Source of the DNA: an uncultured Alphaproteobacteria bacterium
Lineage (GTDB): Bacteria; Pseudomonadota; Alphaproteobacteria; JALCBB01
DNA length: 64,000 nucleotides
Direction: 5' to 3'
NCBI GenBank assembly: GCA_958267355.1
Contig: OY279575.1
Coordinates: 540,335-604,334 of the forward strand
Positions 5,564-60,836 of the stretch are shown piece by piece. The notes under the pieces are model-generated. The model did no database searches, was not told the origin of the DNA, and worked only from the letters and a program-made list of their open reading frames with translations. Within the stretch, counting starts at the first letter, position 1, and each line of letters opens with the position of its first letter. A program made the translations under genes and the position numbers.

Positions 5564-6871
5564 GTGGCTCTGTTCTCCAAAAGTGCGGCGGATAAGTCTT
5601 CTTCGTGGAAGTTTAACGCGGCTACTCTCAAACGGGCACTGCGGGCTTCGGCGCAGAGGGAAGACTCAATTCACCGTCTTCTAATCGACGCGCAAACCTT
5701 GGCGGGTGGATTTCCGCCACTTAACTTGCATATTGCTGACCGTGCGAATGCTACGCTTGGCAGGCACGGCAGGCGGCGTTTCGGACACGGAAGTGATTTC
5801 TGGCAGTTCCGCAACTATGAATGGGGTGACTCGGTTTCAACGATTGATTGGCGGCAATCGGCGCGGTTTGACAGCTTGCAGGTGCGCGAGCGTGAGTGGC
5901 AAGCGCAGCGGGCATTGTACATATGGAGCGATCCGTCTCCGTCGTGTGATTGGTCTTCGGCGCGTCATTTGCCGACTAAGCGGCATCGGGCGCAGGAAAT
6001 TCTGTTAGCCCTAGCAATCCTAGCTTTGCGCGGAGGCGAGTCGGTTGCGGTACTGCGTAACAGTGCGCGTCTAAAATGGGGTGGAGATCTTGCGGCATCT
6101 TTGGCGCAGGAACTTTTTCAGGAGTCGGCAGATTGGTCAGCCCGTAGAGCGGGTAGAGCGCAGGGTGAGTTACAAGGTGAGTCACAGGGTGCATCACAGG
6201 GCTCGCTACAAGGTGAGTCGCAACAGGAGTCGTCTCGTGGTGCGAGTCCATTGCAGGGAGTGCAGGGGGCTGACAATTTGGAGTCGGCGGCGACGACTCT
6301 GCCTGACTTGCGAATTCCCGATGCGGCGAGCCATGTCATTTTGGCGGGAGATTTCTTAGACCCACCCGAGCCGCTTGTTCCCTACTTAAAAGCTGTATCA
6401 GCTCGTGGAGCTACAGGCACACTTGTGCAGGTGCTAGACCCTGCTGAATGGAATCTGCCGTGGCGTGGCGGAGCCATACTAGATGGAACCGAAGGCGAAA
6501 GCCCATGGAAAGTCCGCCGCTTAGAAGAAATTGCTTCTGCTTACGAAAAACGCCTTGCTGACAGTACTGATAGGCTTCGTGCGATTGCTCGTGGTTCGGG
6601 CTGGGGTTATTTGGCGCACAACACGGCGGATTCGTCTGCCAAGGCACTTTTAGCCTTGCATATTCGGCTTAACCAGCGGGCGGGGCAGGGAGCTACCCAG
6701 GGCTCAGGCGGCTCAGGAAGCTCTGAGAAGAGCCCTGAAGCCGATTCGCCGATGAATCCCACTCACACCACCGCGCCACCAGAAAGAGCCACCAGCGTGG
6801 CTCCTGTGGCTTCTCAGGCAAGCCAACGGACAAGCCCACCCAGTGTGGCTTCATCTACTGGCGCGAGATAG
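5564..6871 (+). CDS. DUF58 domain protein with low-complexity insertions
   Basis: DUF58 hallmark FRNYEWGDSVSTIDWRQSARFD. Contains an in-frame QGE(L/S)QG repeat and a Ser/Pro/Thr-rich C-terminal tail. Confidence 0.78.
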   Translation: MALFSKSAADKSSSWKFNAATLKRALRASAQREDSIHRLLIDAQTLAGGFPPLNLHIADRANATLGRHGRRRFGHGSDFWQFRNYEWGDSVSTIDWRQSARFDSLQVREREWQAQRALYIWSDPSPSCDWSSARHLPTKRHRAQEILLALAILALRGGESVAVLRNSARLKWGGDLAASLAQELFQESADWSARRAGRAQGELQGESQGASQGSLQGESQQESSRGASPLQGVQGADNLESAATTLPDLRIPDAASHVILAGDFLDPPEPLVPYLKAVSARGATGTLVQVLDPAEWNLPWRGGAILDGTEGESPWKVRRLEEIASAYEKRLADSTDRLRAIARGSGWGYLAHNTADSSAKALLALHIRLNQRAGQGATQGSGGSGSSEKSPEADSPMNPTHTTAPPERATSVAPVASQASQRTSPPSVASSTGAR

Positions 6872-6886
6872 GCGATAGCCTTAGCT

Positions 6887-9867: not shown

Positions 9868-9952
9868 GCGGCTGTGGCGGAACTGGTAGACGCGCAAGAT
9901 TCAGGTTCTTGTGGGAGCTAATCCCGTGGAGGTTCAAGTCCTCTCAGCCGCA
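9868..9952 (+). tRNA. tRNA-Leu (anticodon CAG)
   Basis: Acceptor stem GCGGCTG/CAGCCGC, anticodon loop tTCAGgt, long variable arm, T-arm GGTTCAAGTCC, discriminator A. Confidence 0.85.
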
Positions 9953-10441
9953 CACCCCTTGCGGGGCGGCGTCAATGCCAGCCCTTGTATTCCCCACCAA
10001 CTGTTAAGCCCCATAGTTTTAGTAACGGGTTAATTGAGCCAATACCCCTTTGCGGGGGGAGCGTGAGATTAGGGGGATTAACTGGCTCCCATTTTTGAGA
10101 CGAAGCCCTATAAAGGCTTAACCCACCAGTAAGACGAAGACGGGAGAAATAGCGGCTTGCCCTGCAGGGGGCGAAGCCCCCGCAGGGTTTGCGCGATTGA
10201 GCGCAAACCGCGGGAGATTAACCTTAATGGAACTGCCCACGCCGTAGCTCGTCCGAAGGTACCGCGAAAACGGAGTTTTCGCGGTACGCGCACGGCGAGA
10301 TGCGGCAAATAGCCCGCGCAAGCGGGCGGATTAAATGTTGCGAGAAAGCCCAACCCTAACCCCTTCTTTTTCGGATTAGGAATAAGGGTAATTAGAAGAC
10401 GGGCGAGATGCGGCAACTAGCCTGTATAGGTGCTTTGCGAT
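9953..10441. repeat. mosaic of dispersed repeat elements (left flank of island)
   Basis: Segments recur at 15250-15460 in direct orientation (e.g. ccccttgcggggggagcgtgagattagggggattaactggctccc) and at 14868-14940 in inverted orientation (tttgagacgaagccctataaaggcttaacccaccagtaagacgaagacggg). Confidence 0.8.
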
Positions 10442-11365
10442 CTATCTATCGCGGTTTCTTTTGTGGGCAAGAATGTTCAGCTTTTCTCGGTAGATTGCAA
10501 CAGAGTGATCTTTAAGAAACTTTTTTATCGTTTTTCCTTTTATAAAGATTGCAAGACGCCTTTCCCACGAAACCTTGTAGGTTAACTCTACTTCATCATA
10601 TCGGTTTGGCTTGCAGCTGGTTAAAAATCTTTCGTCTCCGACATGGAAGTAATCTTCAAAGTGGCCGAGATATTTCACAAACTTTCCGACAACAGGAACC
10701 AGCCCTAAGCAAAATTTTATTTTCTGCATCGTCTCCTTGCCAGGAGGTAACATCGTCACGCAATCAATTGCATTGACAACTCTGTAAATCGGCGTCTTGA
10801 TGGCGTACGACCAAGCTTCGTCTCCCACGCGTGGAGCTCCAAAGGTATAGCAAGCGGCAACGCCGCCTTGATGGTTTAATCTTTTTGCGGCGATCGTGGC
10901 TAAAGCTCCGCCTATGCCGTGTCCTGTTATCAATAGGGGCTTGTGGGCAAATGGCTCTTTGTTCAGGCTCGTTTGAATTGCGCTGGCAATTTGTTCGTAG
11001 GCTTCTTTAAAGCCAGCATGCACGCCGCCATTGGTTTCGCAGGAAACTTTGCGAGCGTTTGCTTCTGTTTTTATATCTTTGAAGCGTTTGGCTTTGTGTC
11101 CTTTGAATGCGAGTATTAGTAAGGTGTTGTTTGAAACGAGCAGGGCTTCGGTTCCGTTGGTATCGTATTTTTGTTCTACGGATAGTCCGATCTTTTCGAT
11201 TTCGGCATCTACTTCGTCAAAAGGCATGTAGGCAAGCTCGGACAGGTGCGCCATTAGCCAAGCGATGCGGTCGCTATATCCTTGCCGATAGGTTGGGAGC
11301 TGGTTGCTTTGGATATAATCCACCAGCAGGGCTTTTTTATCTTCGCTACTTGAAGGCTTGCTCAT
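10442..11365 (-). CDS. class-3 (fungal-type) lipase family protein
   Basis: Nucleophile-elbow pentapeptide GHGIG (in ITGHGIGGALA), Lipase_3-like context, AT-rich codon usage. Start at ATG 11365 (MSKPSSSEDKK). Confidence 0.75.
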   Translation of the reverse strand: MSKPSSSEDKKALLVDYIQSNQLPTYRQGYSDRIAWLMAHLSELAYMPFDEVDAEIEKIGLSVEQKYDTNGTEALLVSNNTLLILAFKGHKAKRFKDIKTEANARKVSCETNGGVHAGFKEAYEQIASAIQTSLNKEPFAHKPLLITGHGIGGALATIAAKRLNHQGGVAACYTFGAPRVGDEAWSYAIKTPIYRVVNAIDCVTMLPPGKETMQKIKFCLGLVPVVGKFVKYLGHFEDYFHVGDERFLTSCKPNRYDEVELTYKVSWERRLAIFIKGKTIKKFLKDHSVAIYREKLNILAHKRNRDR

Positions 11366-11461
11366 GGTTCTGACTTCCTTGAGACTTGTTCCGTGCGGAG
11401 TGCATTCTACCACAGCGTGAAGGCGTGGCAGTTGCAGGGGCGAAACGTGTCGGCTGTTCTT

Positions 11462-14260
11462 CTACCTGCGGGTTTTGAAGGGGATATAAAGCCCACCTGC
11501 TACGCCATGGGCGGTTTTGCCTCGCTCAATGGAGCCACAGCTAGAGCTTGCGTAGCAGACTTTGCCTCCTGCGAAGTGGGCGGCATAGCCCGACAGGGTG
11601 AAACGGGTGCCTTGAGCCGTGGAGAAGCCTAAAGCCGCCTGTACACCCCGCTCGGTGCCTGTGAGCGAGCGTAAAAGCGAGCCTGTGCCATGAACCGAAG
11701 CCTGTGTTTGCCAGGCGGTCAGGCTGACTTGCGACACGGGGCGTAGTGTGGCGGTGAAGCGCAGGTTTTCGCTACGGGCGAAGGAAAAGCCTTGGCTTCC
11801 CTGCGAGCCGAAGAAGCCATCGGAAGAAAAGCGTGTGGCGGCGACTTGCCAGCGGATTCCTGCGTGATGACCTGCAATAGCGGCTCCGCTTTCGCCTGTC
11901 TTCTCGGAGACCAAGCCGAGCCGTGTTTTGTCCTGCTTTGTGCCAGTGAGCGGCAGAAAAGCCCGCGCCGAAGGCGGAGTCGGCGCATACGCCACCTGTC
12001 CCTGCGGATTGTAGCCAAAGAAGCGGCTTTCGCCTTCGGGTGCAATTGCCAACTTGCCGTTGCTCTGGGCGGGTAGGGAGAGTCCGCCGAACTGCCGCCC
12101 ATAGAAAGCACTCAAAAAGCGAGTTGCGACTCCGCTTGCCCCCGCAGGAGCTGACCGAGTCGCCTTAGCCACTTCTTTTGCGGTTTCGTCTGCGGCACAC
12201 CACAAATCAAATCGCCCACGGCCTGTGTCTTTGTCTAGCCCGACGGCTCCGATATCCACGGAGCATTTATCAAAGATTGCCATAGCATCGCTGGCGGTGG
12301 CGGAAGCGGGCAGGTGTTCCCAGATCATGGTAAAGGCAGAAATGGCACCGCTAGAAGACGAGAAAGAAGTGCCGCCATGAAATTCGCTATTGTCTTTCGC
12401 GTTCATTAGCTTGTAGCGGTAGGGAAAGCCCACGCACCATTTTTCTACGCCTTCACAGCCGTTTGCCCTGTATCTTCCTCTATGGTCTTCTGTGAGTCCG
12501 TAGATGAATCGCACCCGCTCGCTTGTGTCGGCGATATACTTTTGGTTACGCATACCGCCTTGCATATAGGTATCGTCTTGGTCGGGAGAGTCTAGGTTAC
12601 TATTTCCTGTGCCTACGAAGATATAGGGGCCAGCGGGTTGGTTGGTGTTGGTGTTAAAAATATCTCCGAGCTGAATTCCGTGCTTTGAGAAGATGCGGGC
12701 AGTGGCAATGGAGACAACGCCATCGGTGGGTAACGCATTATAGAGTGGCGGTATGTTGTAGGTTGAAAAATTGCCGACTCTATACCGCCCACTGAGTCCG
12801 TCGTTTGCGTCTTTTGGCAGGAGTCGTTTTGCTAGGTTGGTGACTTGATATCCGTGGGTGGTTTTTGTCGCGGGGTTTGGAATGGGACTGTAATAGAAGT
12901 TTTGCCGAGAGATATCTTCGTGATCATGGAAGCTCACATTCAATCCGCCGTTATCCATAATGAAGATACCGCTACGCTTGGTGCGCTGTGCCTTTGTAAG
13001 CCCGTGGTCGCGGAAGACTTGAGCCAGACAGCTTTCTTCATTGCCGTTTAGGTTTTCGCCGATTTGGCAGGTAACGGTTTTGTATCCTTCGGTTCTTTCT
13101 GCGGCACACCAGAGGTCAAACCGCCCGCGGCCTGTGCTTTCGTCTAATCCTGTTGTGCCGAGATCTACGGCACAGCTATCAAAAATTGACATTGCATCGC
13201 TGGCGGTGGCGGAAGCGGGCAGGTGTTCCCAAATCATCGTAAAGGCGGTAAGGGCTCCGCTTGAGGTGGAGATAGAAGAGCCACCAAAAGTCCTTCCCTT
13301 GACCTTGTACTCATCAGGAAAGCCCACGCACCATTTTTCTACGCCCTTGCATCCGTTGGTTCTGGATCGTGCTGTTTGTGCTTGGTTGAGTCCATAGATG
13401 AAGCGCACCCTGTCGCTTCGCATGGCGACGAGTTCTTGATTGCGTATTCCGACTCCTGAGCGTGTGTAGCCGTTATCTTGGTCAGGAGTCATAACACTGC
13501 CATTATTTCCTGTCGGAGCAAAAATGTAAGGCCCCATAGCTTGTTTTGTGACGCTGTCAAAAACATCGGCGACTCCGATACCGCTTCGTTGGAAAAGCAA
13601 ACCATAGGCAATGGCAACTGCACCATTCGTGGGCAGGTTATTGTAAACCACTCGGAACTGGGCTGAAGATGGCGTAGAAGAAGTTATGTAATGCCCCTTG
13701 AAGCCTTTTGTGGCTGGGCTACGACTATCTTTAGGAAGCAACGCATCGGCAACTGTGGTGACTTGGTGTGCGTGAAGATTTGAAGCTGGATTGCTAACAA
13801 TTTGATCGCTGGTTTGAACATCCGTTTTAACACCAAGGAGCGTTTCCGTGTATGTATTTTGAGTGCCTTGACTTGGGTTTCCGCCATTGTCAACGAGGAA
13901 AATATTGTCGCGCTTGGTGCGTGTGAGTTTTCGCCCTTCGCGGAAAGTGCGCGTGAGGCAACTTTCTGTGCCTGTGTCTAAGTCTTGTCCGTTTTGACAA
14001 GCCAGGACTTGCGCCTGTGTAAGTGCCACAGGCGTGCCCACACCCGTGCCAGGCGTAGGAGGCGTAACCACAGGCGGGTCTTGTGGGTCAGGGTCAGGGT
14101 CTGGGTCTGGGTCAGGCTGGGTAACAGGCGCACCGCCACCACCACCGCCGCCACCGCCACCTCCACCACAGGCAACAAGCGGCACAGTAAGTAGCAAAGA
14201 AAGCAACAAGACAACAAAAACACAGAAACCCCGCACGGAAACAAGCCCCGCCCCACTCAT
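11462..14260 (-). CDS. lipoprotein with two tandem S8 (subtilase)-like domains and autotransporter-like C-terminal region
   Basis: Lipobox LVAC followed by a G12 tract and PDPDPDPDPDPQDP linker. Two ~275-aa tandem repeats each carry D (F[L/I][VM]DNGG), H (HAHQV / HGYQV) and S (GSSISTSSG / GTSFSSSSG) subtilase-like motifs. C-terminal ~250 aa show an alternating beta-strand pattern like an autotransporter beta domain. Confidence 0.6.
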   Translation of the reverse strand: MSGAGLVSVRGFCVFVVLLLSLLLTVPLVACGGGGGGGGGGGGAPVTQPDPDPDPDPDPQDPPVVTPPTPGTGVGTPVALTQAQVLACQNGQDLDTGTESCLTRTFREGRKLTRTKRDNIFLVDNGGNPSQGTQNTYTETLLGVKTDVQTSDQIVSNPASNLHAHQVTTVADALLPKDSRSPATKGFKGHYITSSTPSSAQFRVVYNNLPTNGAVAIAYGLLFQRSGIGVADVFDSVTKQAMGPYIFAPTGNNGSVMTPDQDNGYTRSGVGIRNQELVAMRSDRVRFIYGLNQAQTARSRTNGCKGVEKWCVGFPDEYKVKGRTFGGSSISTSSGALTAFTMIWEHLPASATASDAMSIFDSCAVDLGTTGLDESTGRGRFDLWCAAERTEGYKTVTCQIGENLNGNEESCLAQVFRDHGLTKAQRTKRSGIFIMDNGGLNVSFHDHEDISRQNFYYSPIPNPATKTTHGYQVTNLAKRLLPKDANDGLSGRYRVGNFSTYNIPPLYNALPTDGVVSIATARIFSKHGIQLGDIFNTNTNQPAGPYIFVGTGNSNLDSPDQDDTYMQGGMRNQKYIADTSERVRFIYGLTEDHRGRYRANGCEGVEKWCVGFPYRYKLMNAKDNSEFHGGTSFSSSSGAISAFTMIWEHLPASATASDAMAIFDKCSVDIGAVGLDKDTGRGRFDLWCAADETAKEVAKATRSAPAGASGVATRFLSAFYGRQFGGLSLPAQSNGKLAIAPEGESRFFGYNPQGQVAYAPTPPSARAFLPLTGTKQDKTRLGLVSEKTGESGAAIAGHHAGIRWQVAATRFSSDGFFGSQGSQGFSFARSENLRFTATLRPVSQVSLTAWQTQASVHGTGSLLRSLTGTERGVQAALGFSTAQGTRFTLSGYAAHFAGGKVCYASSSCGSIERGKTAHGVAGGLYIPFKTRR

Positions 14261-14481
14261 CCAGCGATTGCCTTCTAGTTGCACGGATTATCCTCCACCA
14301 CCAACCCAATAATAGCCCATCCTACACCCCCACAGAACAAGCCTGTAATAATCGCAAGCAAACCCAAAGTGGGTTATATTAAGTCCCAGCGGAGGCATTA
14401 GCCAACGTTAATGCGGTGACGCACACCGCCACTTCGTGGTGGCGCACGTCGCCGCTCAGCGGTGGCTGACGCCACCGCTTC

Positions 14482-14567
14482 GCGGTTGTGGCGGAATGGT
14501 AGACGCGCAGCGTTGAGGGCGCTGTGGAGGCAACTCCGTGGAGGTTCAAGTCCTCTCAACCGCACCA
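14482..14567 (+). tRNA. tRNA-Leu (anticodon GAG)
   Basis: Acceptor GCGGTTG/CAACCGC, anticodon loop tTGAGgg, long variable arm, T-arm GGTTCAAGTCC, encoded CCA. Confidence 0.85.
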
Positions 14568-15706
14568 TTGTTACGGCGGCTTGCGCCGCCTTTGGGCGCA
14601 TCTGGCTTGCTATCCGCGTCCTACGGACGCGATACGCAAGACCACCTGCGCCTGTGGGCAGTTCCACCACCCTTGTTCTTCACGGGCGTTTCACGCCCTA
14701 CTTAAACAAACGGGCTTCACAAACTTCATACTTACCGTTCGGCCCGCTGGCTAAAACGCCAGCGGGCACTTTGGCGTGTTGTTACATCCGCTCGCGTTCG
14801 TGCCCTACGGGCACTCGGTGGCTAAAGCCGCCACTTCGTGGTGGGTCTTCATCTCTAAAGTCGGGAAAGGGCAAGCCGCTATTTCCCCGTCTTCGTCTTA
14901 CTGGTGGGTTAAGCCTTTATAGGGCTTCATCTCAAAGTTAATCTGTGCCTTCCCCATCTTTACAGTACCCTGATTTCTAAGCCGCAGAAAAATGGGTAAG
15001 TGTTGGGCTTTCTCGCAACATTTTTTACGCACGCTTGCGCGGGCTTTGGGCGCATCTGGCTTGCTATCCGCGTCCTACGGACGCGATACGCAAGACCACC
15101 TGCGCCTGTGGGCAGTTCCACCACCCTTGTTCTTCACGGGCGTTTCACGCCCTACTTAACTGACGGGCTTCACAAGCTTCACACATACCGTATGTCCCGC
15201 TGGCTAAAACGCCAGCGGGACACTTGGCAGTGCGGCATTCGTGCCAGCCCTTGTTTCCCCCACCAGCTGTTAAGCCCCATAGTTTTAGTGACGGGTTAAT
15301 TGAGCCGATACCCCTTGCGGGGGGAGCGTGAGATTAGGGGGATTAACTGGCTCCCGTTATGGAGATGAAGACGGGAGAAGTAGCGGCTTGCCCCTTTGCG
15401 GGGGGAGCGTGAGATTAGTGGGATTAACTGGCTCCCGTTATGGAGATGAAGACCCACCGAGCACCCGTAGGGTGCGAACGCGAGCGTAGCGGAGTGAAAC
15501 GAGCGGAGCGAAGCGGACACCGCGTAGCGGCGGCTTTAGCCACCGCGAAGCATCTTGCGCGTAGCGCAAGGCTTCGCGGCACTAGGCGGCGTAAGCCGCC
15601 GTAACTTAAACAGTGAGAGAAAGTCCGCCCCTAACCCCTTTTTCTGCGGCTCAGAAATCAGGGTAGTAAGAAGACAGGAGGATAACGGCTTACTCGCGGG
15701 TTAGAT
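14568..15706. repeat. repeat-rich non-coding region (right flank of island), direct and inverted repeat mosaic
   Basis: A ~117-bp perfect direct repeat at 14589-14705 and 15044-15160, extending with mismatches to about 200 bp. Inverted copies of 9953-10441 elements. Palindromic pairs at 14795-14860 versus 15455-15500. Six-frame ORFs here are not protein-like. Confidence 0.8.
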
Positions 15707-16321
15707 TCAAGCAGTCTTGCGGACATAAGCGCGGGAGCGGTGTTCAGGGCAGTAGGGACTGTCTTCAGTCGCTGGCGATCCGCAAAAGTGAAAATCAGGA
15801 GTCTTCGGAGTACCCATCGGCCATTGACACGGCCTGCCACCAGTCCGCACAACAGGCACCTGCTCCGCACCAGACTTCTTCGCCACAGAAGCACTAGAAG
15901 CACCACCAGAAGCACCACCAGAAACCCGCGGACGAAACGCCGCCACTTCCTGACCACCCTTGCCACCAGTGCCACCAGCACCACCAGCTCCAGCCTTAGC
16001 CTTCGCGCCACTCGCACCACCACGAGCATTACGTAAGCTCTGCTCCGCTTCTTGAGCGCGAAGCGAAACCCATTCCTCGCCCGCCGCCCTAGCGTTGCTG
16101 CCATGGGAATCACCCCCACGCCTGCTAGGAGGACTCAAAGCCACTCCAGCCCCAGCACTGCCCCCCGTGTTGCCAGGCACAGCCCGCGCCAAGCCCAAAC
16201 GATGCGCCTTGCCAATCACCGCATTCTTGCTATATCCCAAACGCTCGCCAATCTGGCTCGTGGTCAAACCACTGCCCCAGAGCTCCTTGAGTTCAGAAAC
16301 TTTTTCTTCAGTCCAAGCCAT
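15707..16321 (-). CDS. gcrA: cell-cycle transcriptional regulator GcrA
   Basis: N-terminus MAWTEEKVSELKELWGSGLTTSQIGERLG, Gly/Ala-rich linker, C-terminus CQWPMG...FHFCG...YCPEHR. Start at ATG 16321. Confidence 0.88.
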   Translation of the reverse strand: MAWTEEKVSELKELWGSGLTTSQIGERLGYSKNAVIGKAHRLGLARAVPGNTGGSAGAGVALSPPSRRGGDSHGSNARAAGEEWVSLRAQEAEQSLRNARGGASGAKAKAGAGGAGGTGGKGGQEVAAFRPRVSGGASGGASSASVAKKSGAEQVPVVRTGGRPCQWPMGTPKTPDFHFCGSPATEDSPYCPEHRSRAYVRKTA

Positions 16322-16613
16322 AGTCAGGTCTCTCCAATATCTAGTGCCAGCGATACCTTCGCTGACCAAGTATAGAAGCGATTCGCCACAGCGCATCACA
16401 ACAGCACAACATATTGGGGGAAATCTAACGAATTCCCCAAAAGAGTTTTCTCCCCGTTCCACAAACTGTGGAAAGTCATCCAGTAAATGAACCACCACCA
16501 GCCAAAATAAAACAAAACACGAATCAAATCCTACAAAAACAAATTCACAAACCACAATAAACACCGAAAATATATAAACTTTCAGATTCTTCTTAGATTA
16601 TTACCAGATTCTT

Positions 16614-17930
16614 CTAAGAAATCCGCCGCGAACCCTCGCGCACAAGCTTTTCCAACGCCTCACGCAAGCCAGAAGCAGGAAAACCCTTCAAAATCATATC
16701 CGCTTCAGCCAATAAGCCACTCGCCTCCCCACGAACCATATCACCCACCCCATGCCGCACCAGCAAAGCTTGAGCTAGCTTTAAATTGTCCTTCATAGAC
16801 GCTGTATTGCTCCGTGAAGGCGATTCGTTTGATTCAGGGTGTTGTGGTGCATCTTCGCCACTTTGCTCGCCCACAGCGGCTTTCTGGAAGGCTTTGTGAG
16901 TGGCTTTCTGGATGGCTTTATGGGGGGCTTTGTGAGTGGCTTTCTGGTGGGCTTCGTGAGTGGCTTTATGGGTAGCTTTGTGAGCGGCTTTCTGACCTTC
17001 GCCTGATTGCTCGCCTTCATCGCTTCGCTCACCCCCGCTGGCTCGCCCAATCGCCACAGAATCCGCCAACACAGGGCTATTTCCCTGATTGCTCTCCTCC
17101 ACCAGAACCCGATGCCAAAAAGCCCGCTCAGAATCATCTCCCGCCTGCCACGCAAGCCACACAGGCAAAGTCATCCGCCCATCACGCAAGTCATCGCCCG
17201 CCGCCTTGCCCGTAACCGCACTTCCGCCTTCGTAATCAAGCAAATCATCCACCATCTGGAAGGCAAGCCCAATCGCTTGCCCAAATTCCGCCATCGCCGC
17301 CCGCTTGCTACCCACAGGCGGCTCAGCCAAGTTTTCAGGCTCCACCAAACAAGCCCCCGCTTCACAAGCCGCCGAGAATAAAGCCGCAGTCTTACCCTCC
17401 ATCACGGCAATGATTTCAGCCCGCGTCAGGTCGGTGCGGCGGGTTGTCCGTAGCCCCAGCATCTCACCTTCAGACACAGTAATCGCCGCCCGCGCCAAAA
17501 CCTGCAACGCCGACGGACAGCCAACTTCAACAATCAAACCAAATGCCCGTCCAAGCAAAAAATCACCCGTCAAAACACTCGCCTTGTTGCCCCAGACAAC
17601 ATTGGCGGCAGGCTGTCCGCGGCGGAGCGCACCCAGATCCACCACATCATCGTGCAGTAAAGTCGCAGAGTGCATAAGCTCCACAGCCGCCGCCAGCTTG
17701 TGCGCCTTAGGTAGCTCGTCAGGCGGAGTCCCACACAAGTGCGCCGCCGCACAAGTCAGCAACGGACGTAACCGCTTGCCCTCCGCGTCTAGCAGGTGTC
17801 CCGCAATTTCAGACACCAGCGGCACATGCGAAGCTACCTGCTGGCGCAAAATGTCAGCCACGGCTTCAGTATCAGGGGCAAGCCGCTCGGCAAGTCCTGC
17901 GGTGTTGCGGATTGTTTGCGGGTTCTGCAT
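16614..17930 (-). CDS. ispB: polyprenyl diphosphate synthase (IspB-like) with in-frame repeat insertion
   Basis: First aspartate-rich motif LLHDDVVD, second DDxxD motif FQMVDDLLD, and the substrate-binding Lys-Arg-Leu-Arg motif EGKRLRP. About 90-aa low-complexity insertion (HKATHKATHEAHQKATHKAPHK...) encoded by tandem ~30-bp repeats at 16880-17000. Confidence 0.82.
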   Translation of the reverse strand: MQNPQTIRNTAGLAERLAPDTEAVADILRQQVASHVPLVSEIAGHLLDAEGKRLRPLLTCAAAHLCGTPPDELPKAHKLAAAVELMHSATLLHDDVVDLGALRRGQPAANVVWGNKASVLTGDFLLGRAFGLIVEVGCPSALQVLARAAITVSEGEMLGLRTTRRTDLTRAEIIAVMEGKTAALFSAACEAGACLVEPENLAEPPVGSKRAAMAEFGQAIGLAFQMVDDLLDYEGGSAVTGKAAGDDLRDGRMTLPVWLAWQAGDDSERAFWHRVLVEESNQGNSPVLADSVAIGRASGGERSDEGEQSGEGQKAAHKATHKATHEAHQKATHKAPHKAIQKATHKAFQKAAVGEQSGEDAPQHPESNESPSRSNTASMKDNLKLAQALLVRHGVGDMVRGEASGLLAEADMILKGFPASGLREALEKLVREGSRRIS

Positions 17931-18092: not shown

Positions 18093-19019
18093 GTGGCAGA
18101 AGTCGCCAAGCCAGTAGGCACCTTTCAGGAGATGATCTTCCGCCTAGAGCAATTCTGGGCAGGGCACGGCTGTGTGGTCTTGCGTGGCTACGACAAAGAA
18201 ATGGGGGCAGGGACTTTTCATCCCGCAACTGCGCTTTATGCTTTGGGGCCGTACAATCCGTGGCGTTGTGCTTATGTTCAGCCGTCTCGCCGTCCGACCG
18301 ATGGGCGGTATGGAGAAAATCCGCATCGCCTACAACGCTACTATCAGTTTCAGGTCTTGCTAAAGCCCGCTCCTGAAGACTCGCGAGAGCTTTACGAAGC
18401 AAGCCTAGCGTATCTTGGCTTAGATAAACGCCGCCACGATTTTCAATACGCCGAAGACGATTGGGAGAGTCCAACTCTGGGGGCTACAGGGCTTGGCTGG
18501 GAAGTCCGTTGCGATGGGCTAGAAATCACCCAGTTCACCTACTTTCAAAAGATGGGCGGGATTGAATGTAATCCGCCATCGGTAGAGCTTACCTACGGAC
18601 TAGAGCGTATCGCCAGCATTGTGCAAGAACGCGATAGCGTTTATGACCTAGCGTGGAACAAAGACTTCACCTATGGCGAAGTTCATCACCAAGTGGAAAT
18701 AGACTTCAGCAAGTACAACTTTGAACAGGCTGACCTAGAAGCCTTACGCCACGACTTTGACCAAGCCGAAGCCAGCGTCAAGCAGATGCTAGACAGGTTT
18801 GACTCAGCCGAAGCCGAATTCGCCGAAGTGCTAAGGGGTGAAGCTGTGCTAGCGGCTTACGACAAGTGCCTTGAAGCTTCGCATCTGTTTAATCTTCTTG
18901 ACGCACGGGGCGCGATATCTCCACAGGTAAGGCAGGAGATGATCTTGCGCGTGCGCAAGCTTGTCACGCGGGTTTGCCAAGCCTGGAAGGGTCAAGTAGG
19001 AGCACAAGACAATGGCTGA
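18093..19019 (+). CDS. glyQ: glycine--tRNA ligase alpha subunit
   Basis: [18 protein letters not shown]...[21 protein letters not shown]...YYQFQV, conserved across the protein. Confidence 0.95.
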   Translation: [308 protein letters not shown]

Positions 19020-38018: not shown

Positions 38019-38019
38019 G

Positions 38020-40690: not shown

Positions 40691-40694
40691 CAAG

Positions 40695-49539: not shown

Positions 49540-49680
49540 CATTTGCGTAGTTTAAAGTATGATTGGACTATAGCCCACTGGAGCGCATTGAAATCCACTG
49601 GGAAGCCCACTGGTAAGCCTACTGGGAAACCCACAGGGAAGCGCCCACTGGTAAGCTCACTGGGAGACACACAGAAACCG
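49540..49680. repeat. 12-bp tandem repeat (CCCACTGGTAAGC-like, ~6 copies) in the lptG/pepA divergent region
   Basis: Direct reading. Confidence 0.85.
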
Positions 49681-49714: not shown

Positions 49715-51325
49715 ATGCCAGCAGTAGCCTCAGCACGCAGTGCCTTGAAAATCACCTTTCACGGGCGCGAAGCCTTGCCTCCGCATGGAGCCGCCATCGC
49801 TGTGCCGCTTGGGGCGGGCGGGAGCTTTCCTGCCGTCACGCGGCGGATTGACGCAAAGCTGGGGGGCTTATTGAAAGACGCGGCTACGCGGGCAGAATGC
49901 ACGGGAGCGGCAGGTGAAGTTCTAGAAGTTTTTACGCCGCAGGAAAGCGGATTGTCGCGGGTCTTTTTGTATGGAACGACTCCGCAGCAGGATTTGCCTG
50001 AAGGTAAGGCGAGTCGTGCTGGACGGAATGAGAAGAAAACTTTTCCTGAACAGCCTGTGTCAAGAATTCCTGCCTTGAGTGCGACTCTGGCGGCTGAAAA
50101 GGCAGGAGCCATTTTGTATGCCAAAGCGGTTGCGGCAAAAGTGCAGGGCAAGGAGTTGTGGCTTGTTTCTGACTCAAGCACGCGGGCTTTGTCTGTGGCT
50201 GAAGGAGCGTTACTCCGTTCGTGGCGTTTTACCACCCACCACACACGCGGAGCCATGCACGGCGAAGCAAAGGTGCAGGCTTTGCGGGTTGTGACTACGG
50301 CGGGCAGGGGGCTTGAGCGTTCGTTTGTTGCTTACAAGGCGCGGGCACGCGGAAATGAAATTGCTAAGGCTTTGGTTTCGGAGTCTCCCAATTGGTTGTA
50401 TCCCGAATCTTTTGTGGCGGTGGCGAAGCGTGATTTGCCGCCTTTGGGGGTTAAGGTTTCGTCCTTGGGTGAAACGGAAATGCGCCGTCTAAATATGGGA
50501 GCATTGCTAGGCGTGGCGCAGGGGTCTGTGCGCAAGCCGCGTCTGCTGGTGATGGAGTACAAGGGTGCACCTGCGAGTGAAAAGCCTGTGCTCTTGGTGG
50601 GCAAGGGAGTCTGCTTTGACACGGGGGGAATTTCGCTCAAGCCCCCTAAGGGTATGGAAGATATGAAATACGATATGGGTGGAGCCGCCGCTGTCACAGG
50701 AGCCATAGCGGCAATCGCAGGACGCAAAGCACGGGCGAATGTTGTGGCGTTAGCGGGCTTGGTGGAAAATATGCCTGATGGTAATGCGCAACGTCCGAGC
50801 GATATTGTTTATTCGGCGTCGGGACAGACAATTGAAGTTCTGAACACCGATGCTGAAGGAAGACTCGTCCTTGCGGATGCGCTTTGGTATGCGCAGAAGT
50901 ATTACAAGCCGCGAGCGATTGTGGATCTAGCGACTTTGACAGGAGCTATGGTCGTGGCTTTGGGTAGTACGCGGGCTGGGTGCTTTGCCAATGATGACAG
51001 GCTTGCTAGGGCTTTGCTGGCGGCGGGCGAGCGGGTTGCTGAGCCTTTGTGGCGGTTTCCGTTGGAGCCCGATTACGACAAGCTGTTGGATTCTCCAGCG
51101 GCTGATATGCAGAATATCAGCCCGGGCTATGGAGCGGGTTCTATTACGGCGGCACAGTTCTTACAGCGATTTGTGGATCGGCGTGTGCCTTGGGCGCATT
51201 TAGACATTGCTGGCGTTGCTTGGCGGCACGGTGGCAGCTTAGAAGCCGCCAAGGGAGCAACGGGCTATGGTGTGCGGCTTTTGAATGAATATGTTTTGAG
51301 TACAGAACGCGGTAGCCGCCGCTAG
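49715..51325 (+). CDS. pepA: leucyl aminopeptidase (M17)
   Basis: NTDAEGRLVLADAL and other M17 active-site motifs. Confidence 0.9.
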   Translation: MPAVASARSALKITFHGREALPPHGAAIAVPLGAGGSFPAVTRRIDAKLGGLLKDAATRAECTGAAGEVLEVFTPQESGLSRVFLYGTTPQQDLPEGKASRAGRNEKKTFPEQPVSRIPALSATLAAEKAGAILYAKAVAAKVQGKELWLVSDSSTRALSVAEGALLRSWRFTTHHTRGAMHGEAKVQALRVVTTAGRGLERSFVAYKARARGNEIAKALVSESPNWLYPESFVAVAKRDLPPLGVKVSSLGETEMRRLNMGALLGVAQGSVRKPRLLVMEYKGAPASEKPVLLVGKGVCFDTGGISLKPPKGMEDMKYDMGGAAAVTGAIAAIAGRKARANVVALAGLVENMPDGNAQRPSDIVYSASGQTIEVLNTDAEGRLVLADALWYAQKYYKPRAIVDLATLTGAMVVALGSTRAGCFANDDRLARALLAAGERVAEPLWRFPLEPDYDKLLDSPAADMQNISPGYGAGSITAAQFLQRFVDRRVPWAHLDIAGVAWRHGGSLEAAKGATGYGVRLLNEYVLSTERGSRR

Positions 51326-51354
51326 GGTTTCGCTGGGGTTTTGCTAGAGTTTTT

Positions 51355-52581: not shown

Positions 52582-53877
52582 ATGGGGCAGGGCAATGCTA
52601 TTGCACACCAAACGGTGTGCCTATGTTTCAGGCAATACGGACTTGCAGTTTTGCTGTTGAGTTTCGTTCCTGTGTTTTTAGCGGGGTGTCAAACCGCGTA
52701 TCTTGGTGAGTCGGTTTTTATTTCTCGTCCGAGTTCTGCGACTTTGCTGGCGATTGCTCTCAGAGAAAAATCTGCGTGGGACGATAATTCTGAAAATCGC
52801 CATAGCAAAAATACGCAAAAACATACTGTCACGAATGGAGTGACTCCTGTTCAGATAGATGAAACCAAACCGCTCACGAAAACCGAAGAAAAATATTTAC
52901 AAAAAATTCTTGACCAAGCTATAACCCCACCACCACCCAAGCCGAATGTTTCGCAGATTCCATCTGAGCCAGTACCAGAACTGCGTGAGCCAGAATTGCG
53001 TGAAAAAGAAGAAGAAACAGTAGGGCAAATCGCACCCCTGTTAGAAAAGCCGATTGACTCCATCGCAATAGATATAAAATCACGCACACAGCCTGACCCC
53101 GAACCTGCAGTCATAGAATTCCGTCCGCCTGAAGTTGAAACCAACACAAGCGAAGTTCAGCTTAATCCCGAGCCCGTATCGGAAAAACTAAAAATGGAAA
53201 CAATACCCAAGCCGCAAACGAACTTTAAACCCATAGATGTGCAGGTAGAAATCCACGAGCCGAAAGTCATAGAAGAAGAATTTACAGCCCAGCAAGTAAG
53301 CGTAAGCTTAAACAAGCCTAGCCCCCAACCCGAACCCGAAGAGCAAGACCCAACAGAAGTGGAGCTAAACAATAGCGTAGTGGTACGCAAAAATATGTTC
53401 GTGCTGGGAGAGCCAGACCCTGACCCTGAAAGAGTAGAAATAGAAATCTACGCACCAAAAATCGTAGAAGAAATATTTACATCACAAAGCATAAGTCTAC
53501 ACCTAGATGAACCTGACCCTGAACGCGATGCACCCGAGACAAGTATATATGAAATCCAGTTTGACAATACAGTCTTCGTAGAAAGCACAGACACAAGTGC
53601 ACCCGATGTGTTAAATGTGCCAAATCCTGACCCTGAAACAGTAGTGGTAGAATTCATACTTACACCCCCTGACCTTGACCTTATAGAAGTCAAAGCAGTG
53701 ATGACAATAGATACTGGCGCACCAAGTCCTAATGACGAAGACCATACAGACGGCGGAGCGGATAGCACCGTAGATGACAGTCCAGAAAGCCTTCACGAAG
53801 TTAGCAAAGACCAGACAGATAAATACGGCTTGGGAGATGCAGAAGACTTATTAAACTCCTTTTTGGGAGGCTTTTAA
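52582..53877 (+). CDS. acidic repeat lipoprotein (unknown function)
   Basis: Lipobox LAGC, very acidic and AT-rich, internal ~40-aa repeats (PDPDPE...IE/VEIYAPKIVEEIFT). Confidence 0.6.
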   Translation: MGQGNAIAHQTVCLCFRQYGLAVLLLSFVPVFLAGCQTAYLGESVFISRPSSATLLAIALREKSAWDDNSENRHSKNTQKHTVTNGVTPVQIDETKPLTKTEEKYLQKILDQAITPPPPKPNVSQIPSEPVPELREPELREKEEETVGQIAPLLEKPIDSIAIDIKSRTQPDPEPAVIEFRPPEVETNTSEVQLNPEPVSEKLKMETIPKPQTNFKPIDVQVEIHEPKVIEEEFTAQQVSVSLNKPSPQPEPEEQDPTEVELNNSVVVRKNMFVLGEPDPDPERVEIEIYAPKIVEEIFTSQSISLHLDEPDPERDAPETSIYEIQFDNTVFVESTDTSAPDVLNVPNPDPETVVVEFILTPPDLDLIEVKAVMTIDTGAPSPNDEDHTDGGADSTVDDSPESLHEVSKDQTDKYGLGDAEDLLNSFLGGF

Positions 53878-54029: not shown

Positions 54030-54190
54030 TATCGCTTGTGGTTTTAGCCTTGGTCTTGGCTGTGATACTGCCCGTGGTGTTAGCCGTGTTATTGCTCGTG
54101 GCGTTAGCTGTGTTATTGCCCGTAGCGTTAGCTGTGCTACTGCCCGTAGCGTTAGCCGTGGTCTTGGCTGTAGCCCTGCGCAGGTTGGGG
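54030..54190. repeat. 21-bp tandem repeat (about 6 copies)
   Basis: gttagcYgtgYtaYtgcYcgtRgc units, read directly from the sequence. Confidence 0.85.
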
Positions 54191-56424: not shown

Positions 56425-56520
56425 ACCAACAGAACAAAACAGACTGTAAAGATAAAACAGATTGTGCAGATTGTAAGGATAAAGCAGACTGTAAAGACAA
56501 AGCAGATTGTAAAACAAGTC
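56425..56520. repeat. 12-bp tandem repeat (CAGAYTGTAAAG-like, ~6 copies) in the recG/sdhE-mfd divergent region
   Basis: Direct reading. Confidence 0.85.
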
Positions 56521-56961: not shown

Positions 56962-59900
56962 GCAGGCAGGCTGACTTCGCAGGCTCCGAGCCATGGCGCC
57001 TACTGTCACTCACAGAGCACCTAAAGGCACAGCAAACCCGCGCTGTGCTTGTCACGCCCGATAGAGCAGCCCTAGAACGCGCCTGCCTATCGGTACAGTT
57101 TTTTGCTCCTGAGCTTGAAGTTTTACGCTTTCCTGCTTGGGATTGTCGCCCTTACGATTCCCTGTCTCCATCGGCAGAGACAATGGCTCTGCGCCTGTCG
57201 TGCCTGCACCGCCTTAGCGAGTTGCAAAACGGGCAAGACGCGCAAGACACAGGGACTCCGCTTTTGGTGATTACTTCTGTGGCGGCGGTGTTGCAGCGTG
57301 TTGCTCCGCGGACTTGGTTTGCTGGACGCTCGCAAATCCTAAAACAAGGCACAACAAGCGGCTTGGATTCCGTGCGTGAATTTTTACATCGCAATGGCTA
57401 TCGCCGCGTAGAAAATGTTGCACTGGCGGGCGAATATGCTGTGCGGGGTGGCTTGTTAGATGTACTTACGCCTGCGGCTTTTACTCCTGCGGCTTTTGAA
57501 GCTTCAAGCGAAGAAGCCAAGTCCGAAGGCGGACATGCCTTGCGGCTAGATTTTTTCGGCGAAGAGCTAGAGCGCATTCGGGTTTTTGATCCTGTAAGCC
57601 AACGCAGTTTGGCGGAAGTGAATTCGGCGGTATTGCTTCCAGCTTCGGAAGTTTTGGCAGACGCGAAAGCCATAAAGCGGTTTCGCCTTGGCTGGCGCAA
57701 ACACTTCGGAGCCCAAGCCACACGCGATGGTCTTTATCGTCAGATGAGTGCTTTGGCGGACTCAAGCGCAGAGTCCCAAAATCACAATGGACAAACCCAC
57801 GATTCTTTGGGCGAAGCTTCCATCGTTGCGACAGGAGCCGATGGTGTGGGTTTATTTCACCACCTACCGCTTTTGCACGAGTCCATGGAGACCTTGGCTG
57901 ACTTTCTACCGCGAACAAACTTTTACTTAGAGCCGCAAGTTCCTGACTATGCGCGCTTGCGAGAAGATGAAGTGCAACGCGGCTACACGACACGCACGGA
58001 GTTAGAAGCTAGAGAAAATAAGGCGCGGCGAAAGTCTGCTTTGCAGTACGAAGTTTTGGAAGCCGAAACGCAACGGGCTTTGCCAACCGAAGCTCTGTAT
58101 CTAAAACAGCAGGAGCTAGAAGCCACGATCAAGAAGACAGGCGGACAAGTTATCCTTGGCACAGATGAAGTCAAGGGCGATGGTGTAGTTCTTGCGCGTG
58201 ATTTTGCGAGTGCTCGTGGCACGGGCAAGCTACTTGAAGAGTTGAAGCAAGAAATACAGGCGCAAAGGCGGGCGAAACGCCGTGTATTGTTTGCGTGTTT
58301 TTCGGAGAATAGTCTTGAGCATTTGCGTGGTTTGTTGAGCGAAAACGAGCTGACGGAAGTGCAAAAAGTTACAAGCCTTGCTGAACTGGAGTCTTTGCCA
58401 ATTGAAATTGCGGGCTTGGCACTCTTACCGTTGGGACATGGATTTTATCGTGAAGGTTTGTGTATTTTTGGTGAATATGACTTGCTGGGCAAGCGGGTGC
58501 AGACTCGTGGAAAGACTCGCCATGCTGAAGATTTTGTTGAAGCTTTAGCGGGCTTGCATGAGTTAGAGCCGCAGGATTTGGTAGTGCATCACGCGCATGG
58601 TATTGGACAATTTTTGGGTTTAGAGACGCTGGTTGCGGATAAGAAGCCGCACGATTGTTTGCGGGTAGCCTATCGTGGCGGGGATAGCATCTTGGTGCCT
58701 GTTGAGCATATGGATTTGCTTTCACGCTATGGCGGCAAGACGCAAGATGTTGAGCTTGATCTTCTGGGGCGGAGTGGCTGGCAGTTGCGGCAAGCCCGTG
58801 TGCGCGGAAGGCTTCGTGATATGGCGGAGCGTTTGATTGCCTTAGCGGTGGAGCGGGCTGAGTTGCGGGTTGAGCCGACGCTAGCGGACTTGGCTTTGTA
58901 TGAGCGGTTTAAGTCGGGTTTTGGCTGGGTGGAGACTCCAGACCAGCAGGAAGCGATTGCGGCGGTGGAGGAGTCGCTTTCGCTTGCCCATCCGATGGAA
59001 CGTATGATTTGCGGAGATGCGGGTTTTGGCAAGACTGAAATTGCGTTACGGGCTTCTTGTTTGGTGGCGGCGAGTGGCAGGCAGGTTGCGATTGTGGCTC
59101 CGACGACTTTGCTGGCGCACCAGCATTACCGCAACTTCAAGGAGCGGTTTGCCGATTTGCCGTTTCGGGTGGCGCAGTTTTCGCGGTTGGTGCCTGAAGC
59201 CCAGCAGAAGGAGTCGCGTGCGCTTTTGGCGGCGGGGAAGGTGGATATAGCCGTTGGCACGCACGCGCTTTTGGCGGAGCGTATTTCTTTTGCTGACCTT
59301 GGGCTTTTGGTGATTGATGAAGAGCAGCGTTTTGGCGTGAAGCAGAAGGAGCGGCTTAAGGGTTTGCGCTTGCCGCCCAATGAGGGAAAGAGCGAGAGAA
59401 AAGGCGAGGGAAAGAGTGAAAGACAAGGTGAAAAAAAGGGTGAGAAAAAGAGCGCAAGCGAGTCAGAAAACAGCAAGGAGAAAAATAGTTTAGTTAATGC
59501 GCCGCATGTTTTGACTTTGTCGGCGACTCCGATTCCGCGTACTTTGCAGCAGGCGTTGCATGGGATTACGGATATGAGTTTAATTTCCACGCCGCCGCCG
59601 ATGCGCACGGCTGTGCGTACTTTTATTGGCACTTGGGATTCGGCGGCTGTGCGTGAAGCCCTGTTGCGGGAGAAGCGGCGTGGTGGGCAATCGTTTGTTG
59701 TTGTGCCGCAGGTGCGTGATTTGGAGTCGTTGCGTGATGATTTGGAGCGGCTTGTTCCTGAGCTTAGTGTTTGTCAGCTTCATGGTGGTGTATCTGCGGC
59801 TGAGTTGGAAGAAACAATGGTGGCGTTTTTGCGTGGTGATTATGATGTACTGCTATCCACGGACATTATTGAGTCGGGCTTAGATATTCCGCGGGCGAAT

Positions 59901-60836
59901 ACTTTGCTGGTTTGGCGGCCTGATCGTTTTGGCTTGGCGCAGTTGTATCAGTTGCGGGGCAGGGTGGGGCGTGGCAATGAAACGGGCTGGGCGTATTTTT
60001 ATACGCGTCCGCATGAGTCTTTGACGCAGGCGGCGCGTCAGCGGTTTGCCGCCTTACAGCGTATGGACGGACTTGGCGTTGGTTTTTCTTTAGCGGCGGC
60101 GGATTTAGAAATTCGCGGTGGCGGAAATTTGTTAGGCGAAGAGCAGAGCGGACAAATCCGTGAAGTGGGTTTGGAATTGTATCAGCGTATGTTAACCGAT
60201 GCGATGAAGGCGGCGCGAGAAAATCGTGACAGGAAAAATCTTAACAAGACAAATCGCGGTGGAAAAAATCGTGGCGAGACAAATCGTGACAGGCAAAATC
60301 GTAATGAGACGAGTCGTGATACGAAGCACCAAGGCGGCAACAAGCTGCCCCCAGACCTGTCAAGCCAAGACGAGTCGCAGAAGACGATTACGGAGTTGAA
60401 GTTAGATTTAGCGTTACGGATTCCTGAAGACTACATAGAAGGTTTGGGTTTGCGGTTAGATTTGTATCGCCGTCTTTCGCGGTTGGAGTCTCCAGAAGCT
60501 TTTCGGGCTTTTCGCGAGGAGATGGAAGACAGGTTTGGCGTTATGCCTGAAGCGATGGATAATTTGTGTCGTGCGATGGCATTGAAGCGGCGGGCTGAAG
60601 CCTTGCGGATCATCCGCGTGGAGGCGCAGGCGCGTATGATTCGCCTGCATTTCGGAGAAGCGGGCTTTAGCAATCCCTTGGGTTTGGTGCGGTGGCTGGA
60701 AGGGGCGCGTGGAGCTGTGTCTTTGGGGGCGGATTCGGTCTTGGTCTGGCGCACGAGTTCTAGCAATGGTGCGGAATTGCTGGAGAAAATCGGTAAGTTT
60801 TTAGCCAAATTGGAGAAGATAGCGGCGGTAGAATGA
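56958..60836 (+). CDS. mfd: transcription-repair coupling factor Mfd with two low-complexity insertions
   Basis: RecG-like helicase core (GDAGFGKTEIA, DEEQRFGV, QLYQLRGRVGRG) and TRCF domain. GTG start overlapping the sdhE stop (GTGA) is inferred. Lys/Glu repeat at 59383-59460 and an RNR(D/N/E)-repeat at 60226-60330. Confidence 0.88.
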   Translation: MSRQADFAGSEPWRLLSLTEHLKAQQTRAVLVTPDRAALERACLSVQFFAPELEVLRFPAWDCRPYDSLSPSAETMALRLSCLHRLSELQNGQDAQDTGTPLLVITSVAAVLQRVAPRTWFAGRSQILKQGTTSGLDSVREFLHRNGYRRVENVALAGEYAVRGGLLDVLTPAAFTPAAFEASSEEAKSEGGHALRLDFFGEELERIRVFDPVSQRSLAEVNSAVLLPASEVLADAKAIKRFRLGWRKHFGAQATRDGLYRQMSALADSSAESQNHNGQTHDSLGEASIVATGADGVGLFHHLPLLHESMETLADFLPRTNFYLEPQVPDYARLREDEVQRGYTTRTELEARENKARRKSALQYEVLEAETQRALPTEALYLKQQELEATIKKTGGQVILGTDEVKGDGVVLARDFASARGTGKLLEELKQEIQAQRRAKRRVLFACFSENSLEHLRGLLSENELTEVQKVTSLAELESLPIEIAGLALLPLGHGFYREGLCIFGEYDLLGKRVQTRGKTRHAEDFVEALAGLHELEPQDLVVHHAHGIGQFLGLETLVADKKPHDCLRVAYRGGDSILVPVEHMDLLSRYGGKTQDVELDLLGRSGWQLRQARVRGRLRDMAERLIALAVERAELRVEPTLADLALYERFKSGFGWVETPDQQEAIAAVEESLSLAHPMERMICGDAGFGKTEIALRASCLVAASGRQVAIVAPTTLLAHQHYRNFKERFADLPFRVAQFSRLVPEAQQKESRALLAAGKVDIAVGTHALLAERISFADLGLLVIDEEQRFGVKQKERLKGLRLPPNEGKSERKGEGKSERQGEKKGEKKSASESENSKEKNSLVNAPHVLTLSATPIPRTLQQALHGITDMSLISTPPPMRTAVRTFIGTWDSAAVREALLREKRRGGQSFVVVPQVRDLESLRDDLERLVPELSVCQLHGGVSAAELEETMVAFLRGDYDVLLSTDIIESGLDIPRANTLLVWRPDRFGLAQLYQLRGRVGRGNETGWAYFYTRPHESLTQAARQRFAALQRMDGLGVGFSLAAADLEIRGGGNLLGEEQSGQIREVGLELYQRMLTDAMKAARENRDRKNLNKTNRGGKNRGETNRDRQNRNETSRDTKHQGGNKLPPDLSSQDESQKTITELKLDLALRIPEDYIEGLGLRLDLYRRLSRLESPEAFRAFREEMEDRFGVMPEAMDNLCRAMALKRRAEALRIIRVEAQARMIRLHFGEAGFSNPLGLVRWLEGARGAVSLGADSVLVWRTSSSNGAELLEKIGKFLAKLEKIAAVE

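Follow-up and report, generated by a model that had tools for sequence, protein, structure and literature searches.

Tandem repeats in conserved enzymes of an uncultured alphaproteobacterial lineage: a probable lineage-wide slippage tendency filtered by selection on proteins

Short tandem arrays are unusually dense in a 64-kb stretch of DNA (the window; all positions below are counted from its first letter) from an uncultured alphaproteobacterium, and many of them lie in frame within genes for conserved enzymes, among them Mfd, NrdJ, IspB and Sua5. Our data show that the arrays are strongly enriched over shuffled sequence and over comparable loci of other alphaproteobacteria, that those inside genes have passed a reading-frame filter, that they occupy loops and linkers of the encoded proteins, that they differ by whole units between close strains and that their sequence turns over between sister clades. 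The explanation we favour, with a probability of roughly 0.75, is a lineage-wide slippage tendency that acts everywhere in the DNA, with purifying selection removing the arrays that break proteins.

The window comprises bases 545,413–609,412 of ENA ERZ19433661 contig hifiasm.ptg000096c, a circular HiFi contig of 1,859,045 bp. Its G+C content is 53%, and the gene calls of the public record place 45 genes in it, giving a coding density of 89% with about 11% of non-coding DNA. The presence of GcrA (by Pfam) and the nearest homologues assign the organism to the alphaproteobacteria, and Pfam also confirms the identity of the DUF58, polyprenyl synthase (IspB-type), class II ribonucleotide reductase (NrdJ), Sua5 and Mfd proteins. 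The closest named relatives are metagenome-assembled genomes labelled 'Alphaproteobacteria bacterium', with identities of 48% for Mfd, 54–57% for IspB and 64–67% for NrdJ. A search of GTDB genomes with exact Mfd peptides recovered no relative, and in a profile-based GTDB scan the best Mfd proteins of species representatives were at most 42% identical; those were taken as comparators. No description of the lineage or of sample ERZ19433661 was located in the literature. The same HiFi metagenome contains at least seven co-occurring related genomes that fall into two clades: clade A, to which the window belongs, whose proteins share at least 96% identity (on contigs of 1.86, 1.87 and 1.90 Mb and on fragments), and its sister clade B, whose proteins are about 80–83% identical (on contigs of 1.58/1.84 and 2.09 Mb and on a fragment of 128 kb).

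Arrays were called strong when their Tandem Repeats Finder (TRF) score was at least 50 and their period at least 6, and a wider set was taken at scores of at least 30. The window holds 27 strong arrays, against a mean of 0.23 and a maximum of 2 in 30 dinucleotide-preserving shuffles, and within coding sequences 9–10 were found against 0.3 in codon shuffles. For comparison with real genomes we used 80 alphaproteobacterial loci centred on mfd, 1.69 Mb in total. The density of strong arrays is 4.2 per 10 kb in the window and 0.57 in the pooled comparator loci (median 0.43, maximum 3.4), and three sub-loci of the window of about 22 kb each (3.5, 4.2 and 5.6 per 10 kb) all exceed every one of the 80. 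The mfd gene of the window alone carries 3 arrays, while the 80 comparator mfd genes carry 14 in sum. Loci of clades A and B have densities of 2.4–5.0 per 10 kb, and the one locus available from a relative with 48%-identical Mfd has 1.7. An earlier reading of the window made from its sequence alone (the sequence-only reading) had claimed an unusual repeat density, and this is borne out against both the shuffles and the 80 mfd loci; all seven repeats that it listed in DUF58, ispB, nrdJ, sua5 and mfd were found in frame where it had placed them.

That reading had also presented the arrays as a habit of housekeeping genes, which does not hold, as arrays are 6–10 times denser in non-coding DNA. 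Ten of the strong arrays lie wholly in coding sequence, 13 are intergenic and 4 run across gene ends; in the wider set the density is 37.6 per 10 kb outside coding sequence versus 5.8 within it (6.5-fold). Periods that are multiples of three account for 10 out of 10 strong coding arrays and for 29 out of 33 in the wider set, the four others scoring only 31–39, which is the chance level. Outside coding sequence such periods make up 9 of 26, the neutral third, and the periods there include 11, 14, 16, 17, 19, 20, 23, 25, 31 and 32 bp. The bias is significant both for coding versus non-coding arrays (Fisher P = 3e–5) and for coding arrays versus one third (binomial P = 1e–10). Since multiples of three are the rule only inside genes, frame-keeping is a filter applied by selection and not a property of the process that generates the arrays; the statement that all repeats keep the frame reflects this filter. 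As to the periods of 15, 18, 21 and 30 bp that had been described, those of 15, 18 and 30 bp recur, a 21-bp period is absent from coding sequence, and the actual coding periods are 3, 6, 9, 12, 15, 18, 24, 30 and 36 bp.

Comparison of close strains shows that arrays change by whole units. Fifteen internal coding indels separate clade-A strains whose proteins share at least 96% identity, and 14 of them are changes by whole units of an array, the sole exception being a single Pro in the DUF58 protein. IspB proteins from four clade-A genomes, 96–98% identical outside the array, carry about 10 (the window), 11, 8 and 3 units, with lengths of 438, 442, 430 and 410 residues and DNA indels of 84 bp and 12 bp. 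The other arrays were compared at the protein level between proteins at least 97% identical. One unit of the Sua5 EAT array is deleted in 2 of 5 alleles; the DUF58 QGES array differs by –2, 0, +1 and +2 units between proteins of at least 98% identity; in Mfd the GQD array varies, TPAAF is present in 1, 2 or 3 units and KSERKGEG in 1 or 2; both the AGA and the GGAS array of GcrA vary by whole units; and in a 431-residue lipoprotein PELRE is a single unit in one allele and a PD array is variable too. At the DNA level a third complete strain (L092) differs, in addition, by a 9-bp RKD unit of ppdK and by a GTG unit of the DUF2155 gene. Spacers change as well: an intergenic 11-bp unit at 51325 is absent in a strain that is 99% identical, and further indels that are not multiples of three are present. 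Comparison of copy numbers among strains, which had been proposed as a check, thus gave whole-unit differences at ispB, DUF58, sua5, mfd, gcrA, ppdK and the 431-residue lipoprotein gene. Head-to-tail short units and whole-unit copy change between close strains, the two marks of variable-number tandem repeats (VNTRs), are both seen here.

It might be asked whether such arrays are real, as mixed-strain metagenome assemblies can collapse or expand repeats. The same arrays, however, recur on at least 4–8 independent HiFi contigs from hifiasm and hifiasm-meta, differing only by whole units and with frames intact, which all but rules out errors of HiFi reads or assembly. Another possible source would be a dispersed palindromic element of the kind known from Rickettsia. 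Rickettsia palindromic elements (RPEs) are dispersed mobile palindromes of about 150 bp that insert in frame into metabolic genes (PMC10969869). Like our arrays, they occur in an alphaproteobacterium as in-frame additions to unrelated metabolic genes, in places that the protein fold allows. In contrast to RPEs, the inserts described here are not palindromic but locally generated tandem arrays that show no similarity to each other or to other parts of the window, so that they do not form a dispersed family. When 14 insert segments were compared with the window by blastn, there were no non-self matches except one of 16 bp. An origin of the inserts from RPEs or from miniature inverted-repeat transposable elements is ruled out by this lack of shared DNA similarity, and we regard artefact and mobile element together as very improbable. 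With the enrichment and the whole-unit changes between near-identical strains, the exclusion of assembly artefact supports the reading of the genome as prone to replication slippage.

Coding arrays are placed where the protein fold can accommodate them. Mapping of the insertions to loops in structure models had been suggested, and in Mfd, NrdJ, IspB and Sua5 they do fall in linkers or loops when compared with E. coli Mfd, PDB 7b9p, PDB 9d3h and a model of IspB. Mfd, aligned with relatives and with ordinary alphaproteobacterial orthologues, has five insertions. A 24-bp array of two KSERKGEG units (59382–59454, plus strand; TRF) belongs to a 44-residue insert that maps between residues 747 and 750 of E. 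coli Mfd, between helicase motifs II and III, and an array of N-R-x-x type with periods of 15 and 30 bp (5.5 and 3.5 copies; 60215–60319, plus strand; TRF) belongs to a 48-residue N-R-rich insert that maps to the D6–D7 linker, between residues 991 and 999 of the E. coli protein. Two further TRF arrays of the same gene and strand are GQD/AQD (9 bp, 2.8 copies; 57224–57248), one unit of which is missing from allele P0410, and TPAAF (15 bp, 2.1 copies; 57466–57497), an insertion in domain D2 relative to E. coli Mfd.

NrdJ, encoded on the plus strand, has four insertions by alignment. The first (28103–28244; TRF) consists of imperfect 9-bp repeats followed by 4.1 copies of the 18-bp ASALET unit (28172–28244, 92% matches) and adds about 34 residues relative to homologues. 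The second (28739–28789) is hydrophilic, non-repetitive and 14 residues long in comparison with five homologues and PDB 7b9p; both it and the ASALET insert are clean gaps against that solved structure. The third, at 30089–30175, is an extension of an acidic linker seen in the alignment, and the fourth is a C-terminal Ala/Gly/Thr low-complexity linker (30824–31078) which the alignment shows to be longer here. This last region had been listed among the repeats, and the low-complexity linker is indeed present; it holds no clean array, and TRF matches only a weak 12-bp repeat at 30878–30900.

In Sua5 (minus strand, 32643–32702), the interdomain linker holds 2.6 copies of the 9-bp EAT unit (TRF 32671–32693) together with EA(I/V)A(I/V). 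The EAT array, 11 residues that PDB 9d3h lacks, immediately precedes the PGxxYRHYAP motif. IspB is 438 residues long instead of the usual 338, the extra ~100 residues following the position equivalent to residue 274 of PDB 4jxn. The ispB array, of about 9.8 H-K-A-T-like units (16878–16994, minus strand; TRF periods 12, 24 and 36), lies within this insertion (residues 283–385). In an AlphaFold model built from 45 sequences the IspB core has a predicted local distance difference test score (pLDDT) above 90, and residues 285–372, between helices 266–282 and 373–392, score below 50; the insertion is thus predicted to be disordered. The DUF58 domain is interrupted by an insertion, and this holds the DUF58 array, five copies of a 12-bp QGES-type unit (6158–6235, plus strand; TRF 6164–6223, score 43, and translation). 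Ala, Gly, Ser, Glu, Lys, Gln and Asn are abundant in the inserts, and hydrophobic residues make up 10.8% of them versus 31.1% in all proteins of the window. Conserved proteins are 10–30% longer than their orthologues.

In clade B the same sites of Mfd and IspB are likewise occupied by insertions, whose sequence is unrelated and which carry repeats of their own. At the D6–D7-linker site clade-B Mfd reads TAKTGKTGK or ADTKADT, and at the KSERKGEG site its sequence is again unrelated; clade-B IspB (377, 382 and 387 residues) has a five-residue unit of the TP(A/V)EQ type that is itself variable. Arrays particular to clade B were also found in RecG, HolC, the DUF2155 protein and the N-terminus of Mfd. 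In relatives of about 50–52% identity the IspB insertion is absent and only one Mfd site has a short insertion. The sister-clade orthologue of NrdJ was not among the homologues that the search recovered. A different organism (P0122, NrdJ 58% identical) has a 1410-residue NrdJ with an in-frame tandem duplication of about 190 residues that covers the whole TSCPD region.

These comparisons bear on the idea that the arrays are adaptive, variable disordered linkers being useful for enzyme dynamics, solubility or interactions, or repeats serving as contingency loci for surface variation. In favour of it, the insertion sites persist between clades that differ by about 20%, all the inserts are hydrophilic, and two lipoproteins and a giant adhesin-like open reading frame carry repeats, where variation could plausibly matter. 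However, the intergenic excess, the absence of conserved sequence or unit between clades and the drift of copy number, which in cytosolic enzymes varies among co-occurring strains without evident pattern, argue against an adaptive role in those enzymes, and periods in multiples of three are unable to switch expression on or off. We therefore consider the adaptive explanation unlikely. Selection for disordered linkers, the other possibility raised by the sequence-only reading, is neither needed nor shown, given that the inserts are not conserved between sister clades and that their copy number drifts.

A slippage tendency filtered by selection could work as follows. Short tandem duplications with units of 3–36 bp would arise at an unusually high rate in the lineage, and the arrays would then grow or shrink by whole units, probably through slipped-strand mispairing or unequal exchange between sister strands. 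In spacers, arrays of whatever period would pile up; in genes, the survivors would be only those with periods in multiples of three whose peptides are hydrophilic and prone to disorder and fall in linkers between domains, in surface loops or at termini. A loop that tolerates insertions might act as a nursery, so that sister clades would retain the site but have unrelated repeats there. In Mfd, NrdJ, IspB, Sua5, DUF58, GcrA and PpdK the arrays would accordingly be tolerated by-products and not functional modules, and presumably close to neutral. The driver may be a raised mutation rate, weak selection in a small and possibly host-associated population, or both.

Weak selection could in principle suffice, if slippage runs at an ordinary rate and a small effective population fixes mildly deleterious insertions by drift. 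A small genome of 1.86 Mb, the lengthened conserved proteins and a very fast-evolving GlyS in the clade are all in line with this. Nevertheless, 89% of the window is still coding, about 15 loci are polymorphic by whole units between strains 1–4% diverged, which points to a high rate per locus, and the intergenic excess over the 80 other genomes is also large. Relaxed selection on its own is in our opinion quite improbable, and it can be combined with slippage rather than replace it.

Several points weigh against a lineage-wide slippage tendency and should be kept in mind. The analysis covered 64 kb of this genome, about 3.5% of it, and some 40 kb from relatives, so 'genome-wide' is an extrapolation. 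The comparator loci are short (about 23 kb), come from one gene neighbourhood and mostly have a higher G+C content. Insertions whose sites are shared by clades some 20% apart may not be freely lost, which leaves room for some function. Finally, a mutator lineage deficient in mismatch repair would be marked by the loss or inactivation of mutS, mutL or the proofreading subunit; uvrD, recG, mfd and holC are all in place, in the window or next to it, and relatives have recJ.

The closest precedent is Ehrlichia ruminantium, a bacterium of low G+C content. Many tandem repeats are reported for it, with expansion and contraction targeted there and mainly in non-coding DNA (Frutos et al. 2006, summarised in PMC10710844), and the same summary gives a coding density of about 64% with long spacers (PMC10710844). 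As far as that summary goes, both are small-genome alphaproteobacteria with repeats denser in non-coding DNA and with expansion and contraction between strains, whereas here coding density is 89%, G+C content is 53% and many in-frame arrays reside in core enzymes. The lineage is not related to E. ruminantium, its Mfd being at most 48% identical to that of any named relative.

Whole-unit change by slippage and polymorphism among close strains are also typical of bacterial VNTRs and contingency loci. Contingency loci of Haemophilus and Neisseria have units of 1–7 bp and switch surface and virulence genes by frameshift. Coding arrays in our lineage, in contrast, have periods in multiples of three, belong to housekeeping enzymes and leave the frame unaltered in all alleles, so that repeat change in them brings no frame switching. 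A further parallel is found in Plasmodium falciparum, where housekeeping proteins carry hydrophilic, fast-evolving, repeat-derived loop insertions that are usually explained by slippage and tolerance. While the repeat-derived hydrophilic inserts in loops of conserved enzymes are alike, P. falciparum is a eukaryote with an AT-rich genome, Asn/Lys-rich inserts and an affected proteome as a whole, and here we deal with a bacterium whose inserts are rich in Ala, Gly, Ser and Glu.

More tentatively, hyper-slippage may be a heritable phenotype of the clade, caused for instance by an altered component of the replisome or of repair, and may continuously seed disordered insertions of variable copy number into essential enzymes; we find this possible, although doubtful. 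If so, the clade would be a bacterial counterpart of the low-complexity proteome of Plasmodium, and the seven or more genomes co-occurring in a single HiFi sample would show how such insertions are born, grow and are replaced. Under the slippage explanation in general, the lineage would offer a natural example of how disordered low-complexity insertions arise, with mutation acting everywhere and selection keeping those that are in frame, hydrophilic and in loops. The availability of several close complete genomes from one long-read sample makes the rate and direction of array change directly measurable. The arrays are also ready strain markers for the lineage and a warning for gene annotation and short-read assembly.

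The remaining coding arrays lie at protein ends, in linkers and in lipoproteins. The gcrA linker (15892–15992, minus strand) has a GGAS 12-bp and an AGA 9-bp array (TRF 15892–15923 and 15961–15992), with a 9-bp indel relative to strain L087. The GcrA protein as called (285 residues, 15707–16564) begins about 81 codons before a conserved Met (MAWTEEK), and the clade-B call has 196 residues; the N-terminal extension is probably an annotation artefact. At the C-terminal end of ppdK three RKD units form a 9-bp array (23947–23974, plus strand; TRF), one of which is deleted in strain L092, and the DUF2155 gene has a GTG trinucleotide run (24148–24160, minus strand) with a 3-bp indel against the same strain. 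In the 431-residue lipoprotein the PELRE array consists of two 15-bp units (52975–53010, plus strand; TRF), and the variable PD dipeptide array is near residue 363. A 940-residue lipoprotein (11462–14284) carries Gly12 (a 3-bp run) and (PD)5 (6 bp, 5.3 copies) directly after the lipobox Cys (14085–14169, minus strand; TRF, translation). It had been labelled 'S8', for which we see no support: there is no Pfam match even at E ≤ 5 and no notable PDB sequence match. The same protein has an internal duplication of about 300 residues (12181–12560 versus 13090–13454, 72–79% nucleotide identity).

The arrays in non-coding DNA were all found by TRF. Upstream of moxR there is one with periods of 16 and 30 bp (4281–4377). 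The spacer between yjgF and sua5 contains a GGGCTT(A/T)TA-type minisatellite (31883–32312) with periods of 11, 19, 20, 25 and 31 bp and a higher-order duplication; almost the whole spacer (31780–32300) is made of this nested minisatellite, with a duplication about 210 bp apart, and relatives have arrays with comparable G-rich units (L002, 4027–4235; L087, 4085–4131). The fhs–bioY spacer (38015–38126) has 3.7 copies of 14 bp and 3.1 copies of 12 bp, and the rsmA–pdxA junction (43610–43696) a 16/32-bp array. Three spacer arrays differ from strain L003: the lptF/G–pepA spacer (49595–49665; 12 bp, 5.8 copies) by a 2-bp indel, the pepA–holC spacer (51321–51353; 11 bp, 3 copies) by exactly one 11-bp unit that L003 lacks, and the array downstream of recG (54059–54174; 24 bp, 4.7 copies) by a 1-bp indel. 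The recG–sdh5 junction (56440–56517) has an 18/27-bp array. One recG allele (P0433, 788 residues) has a frameshift near the stop codon (window position 54227) and reads on into repetitive sequence, of which the 24-bp array downstream of recG is likely the counterpart.

The glyS gene for the glycyl-tRNA synthetase beta subunit (window 19012–21186; L092 6724–8919; L088 6743–8923) is extremely divergent between genomes whose flanking genes are 93–99% identical. Nucleotide identity drops to 40–70% over about 2 kb, and protein identity is 52–59% overall, with blocks of 20–40% interleaved with blocks conserved at 100%. All three alleles score below the TIGR00211 cut-off, and a comparison with 1.84 billion representatives gave other alleles of the clade as the closest proteins (76, 63, 53, 43 and 39% identical). 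Transfer from outside the clade is ruled out as the source of this divergence, as outside GlyS proteins are about 30–35% identical and the divergent alleles are closest to one another. Unusual mutation or recombination might show itself in this allelic divergence as well.

At 9868–10403 and 14482–15678 there are two tRNA-Leu genes (anticodons CAG and GAG), and behind each of them come copies of a repeat of about 450 bp; with further inverted copies, they bracket a lipase_3 gene and the gene of the 940-residue lipoprotein (10442–14284). Strains L087, L088 and L092 have aspS after gcrA instead, which implies a rearrangement or an island junction. From 61205 to 64000 and beyond lies the start of a gene called at 10,316 residues, where relatives have IAT_beta and Calx-beta domains; it is about 82% identical between strains that are 99% identical elsewhere. 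A cluster at 34663–40543 encodes a DUF1638 protein, a B12-binding corrinoid protein, formate-tetrahydrofolate ligase, BioY and an MttB-family methyltransferase, and suggests demethylation of a methylamine or glycine betaine together with biotin uptake.

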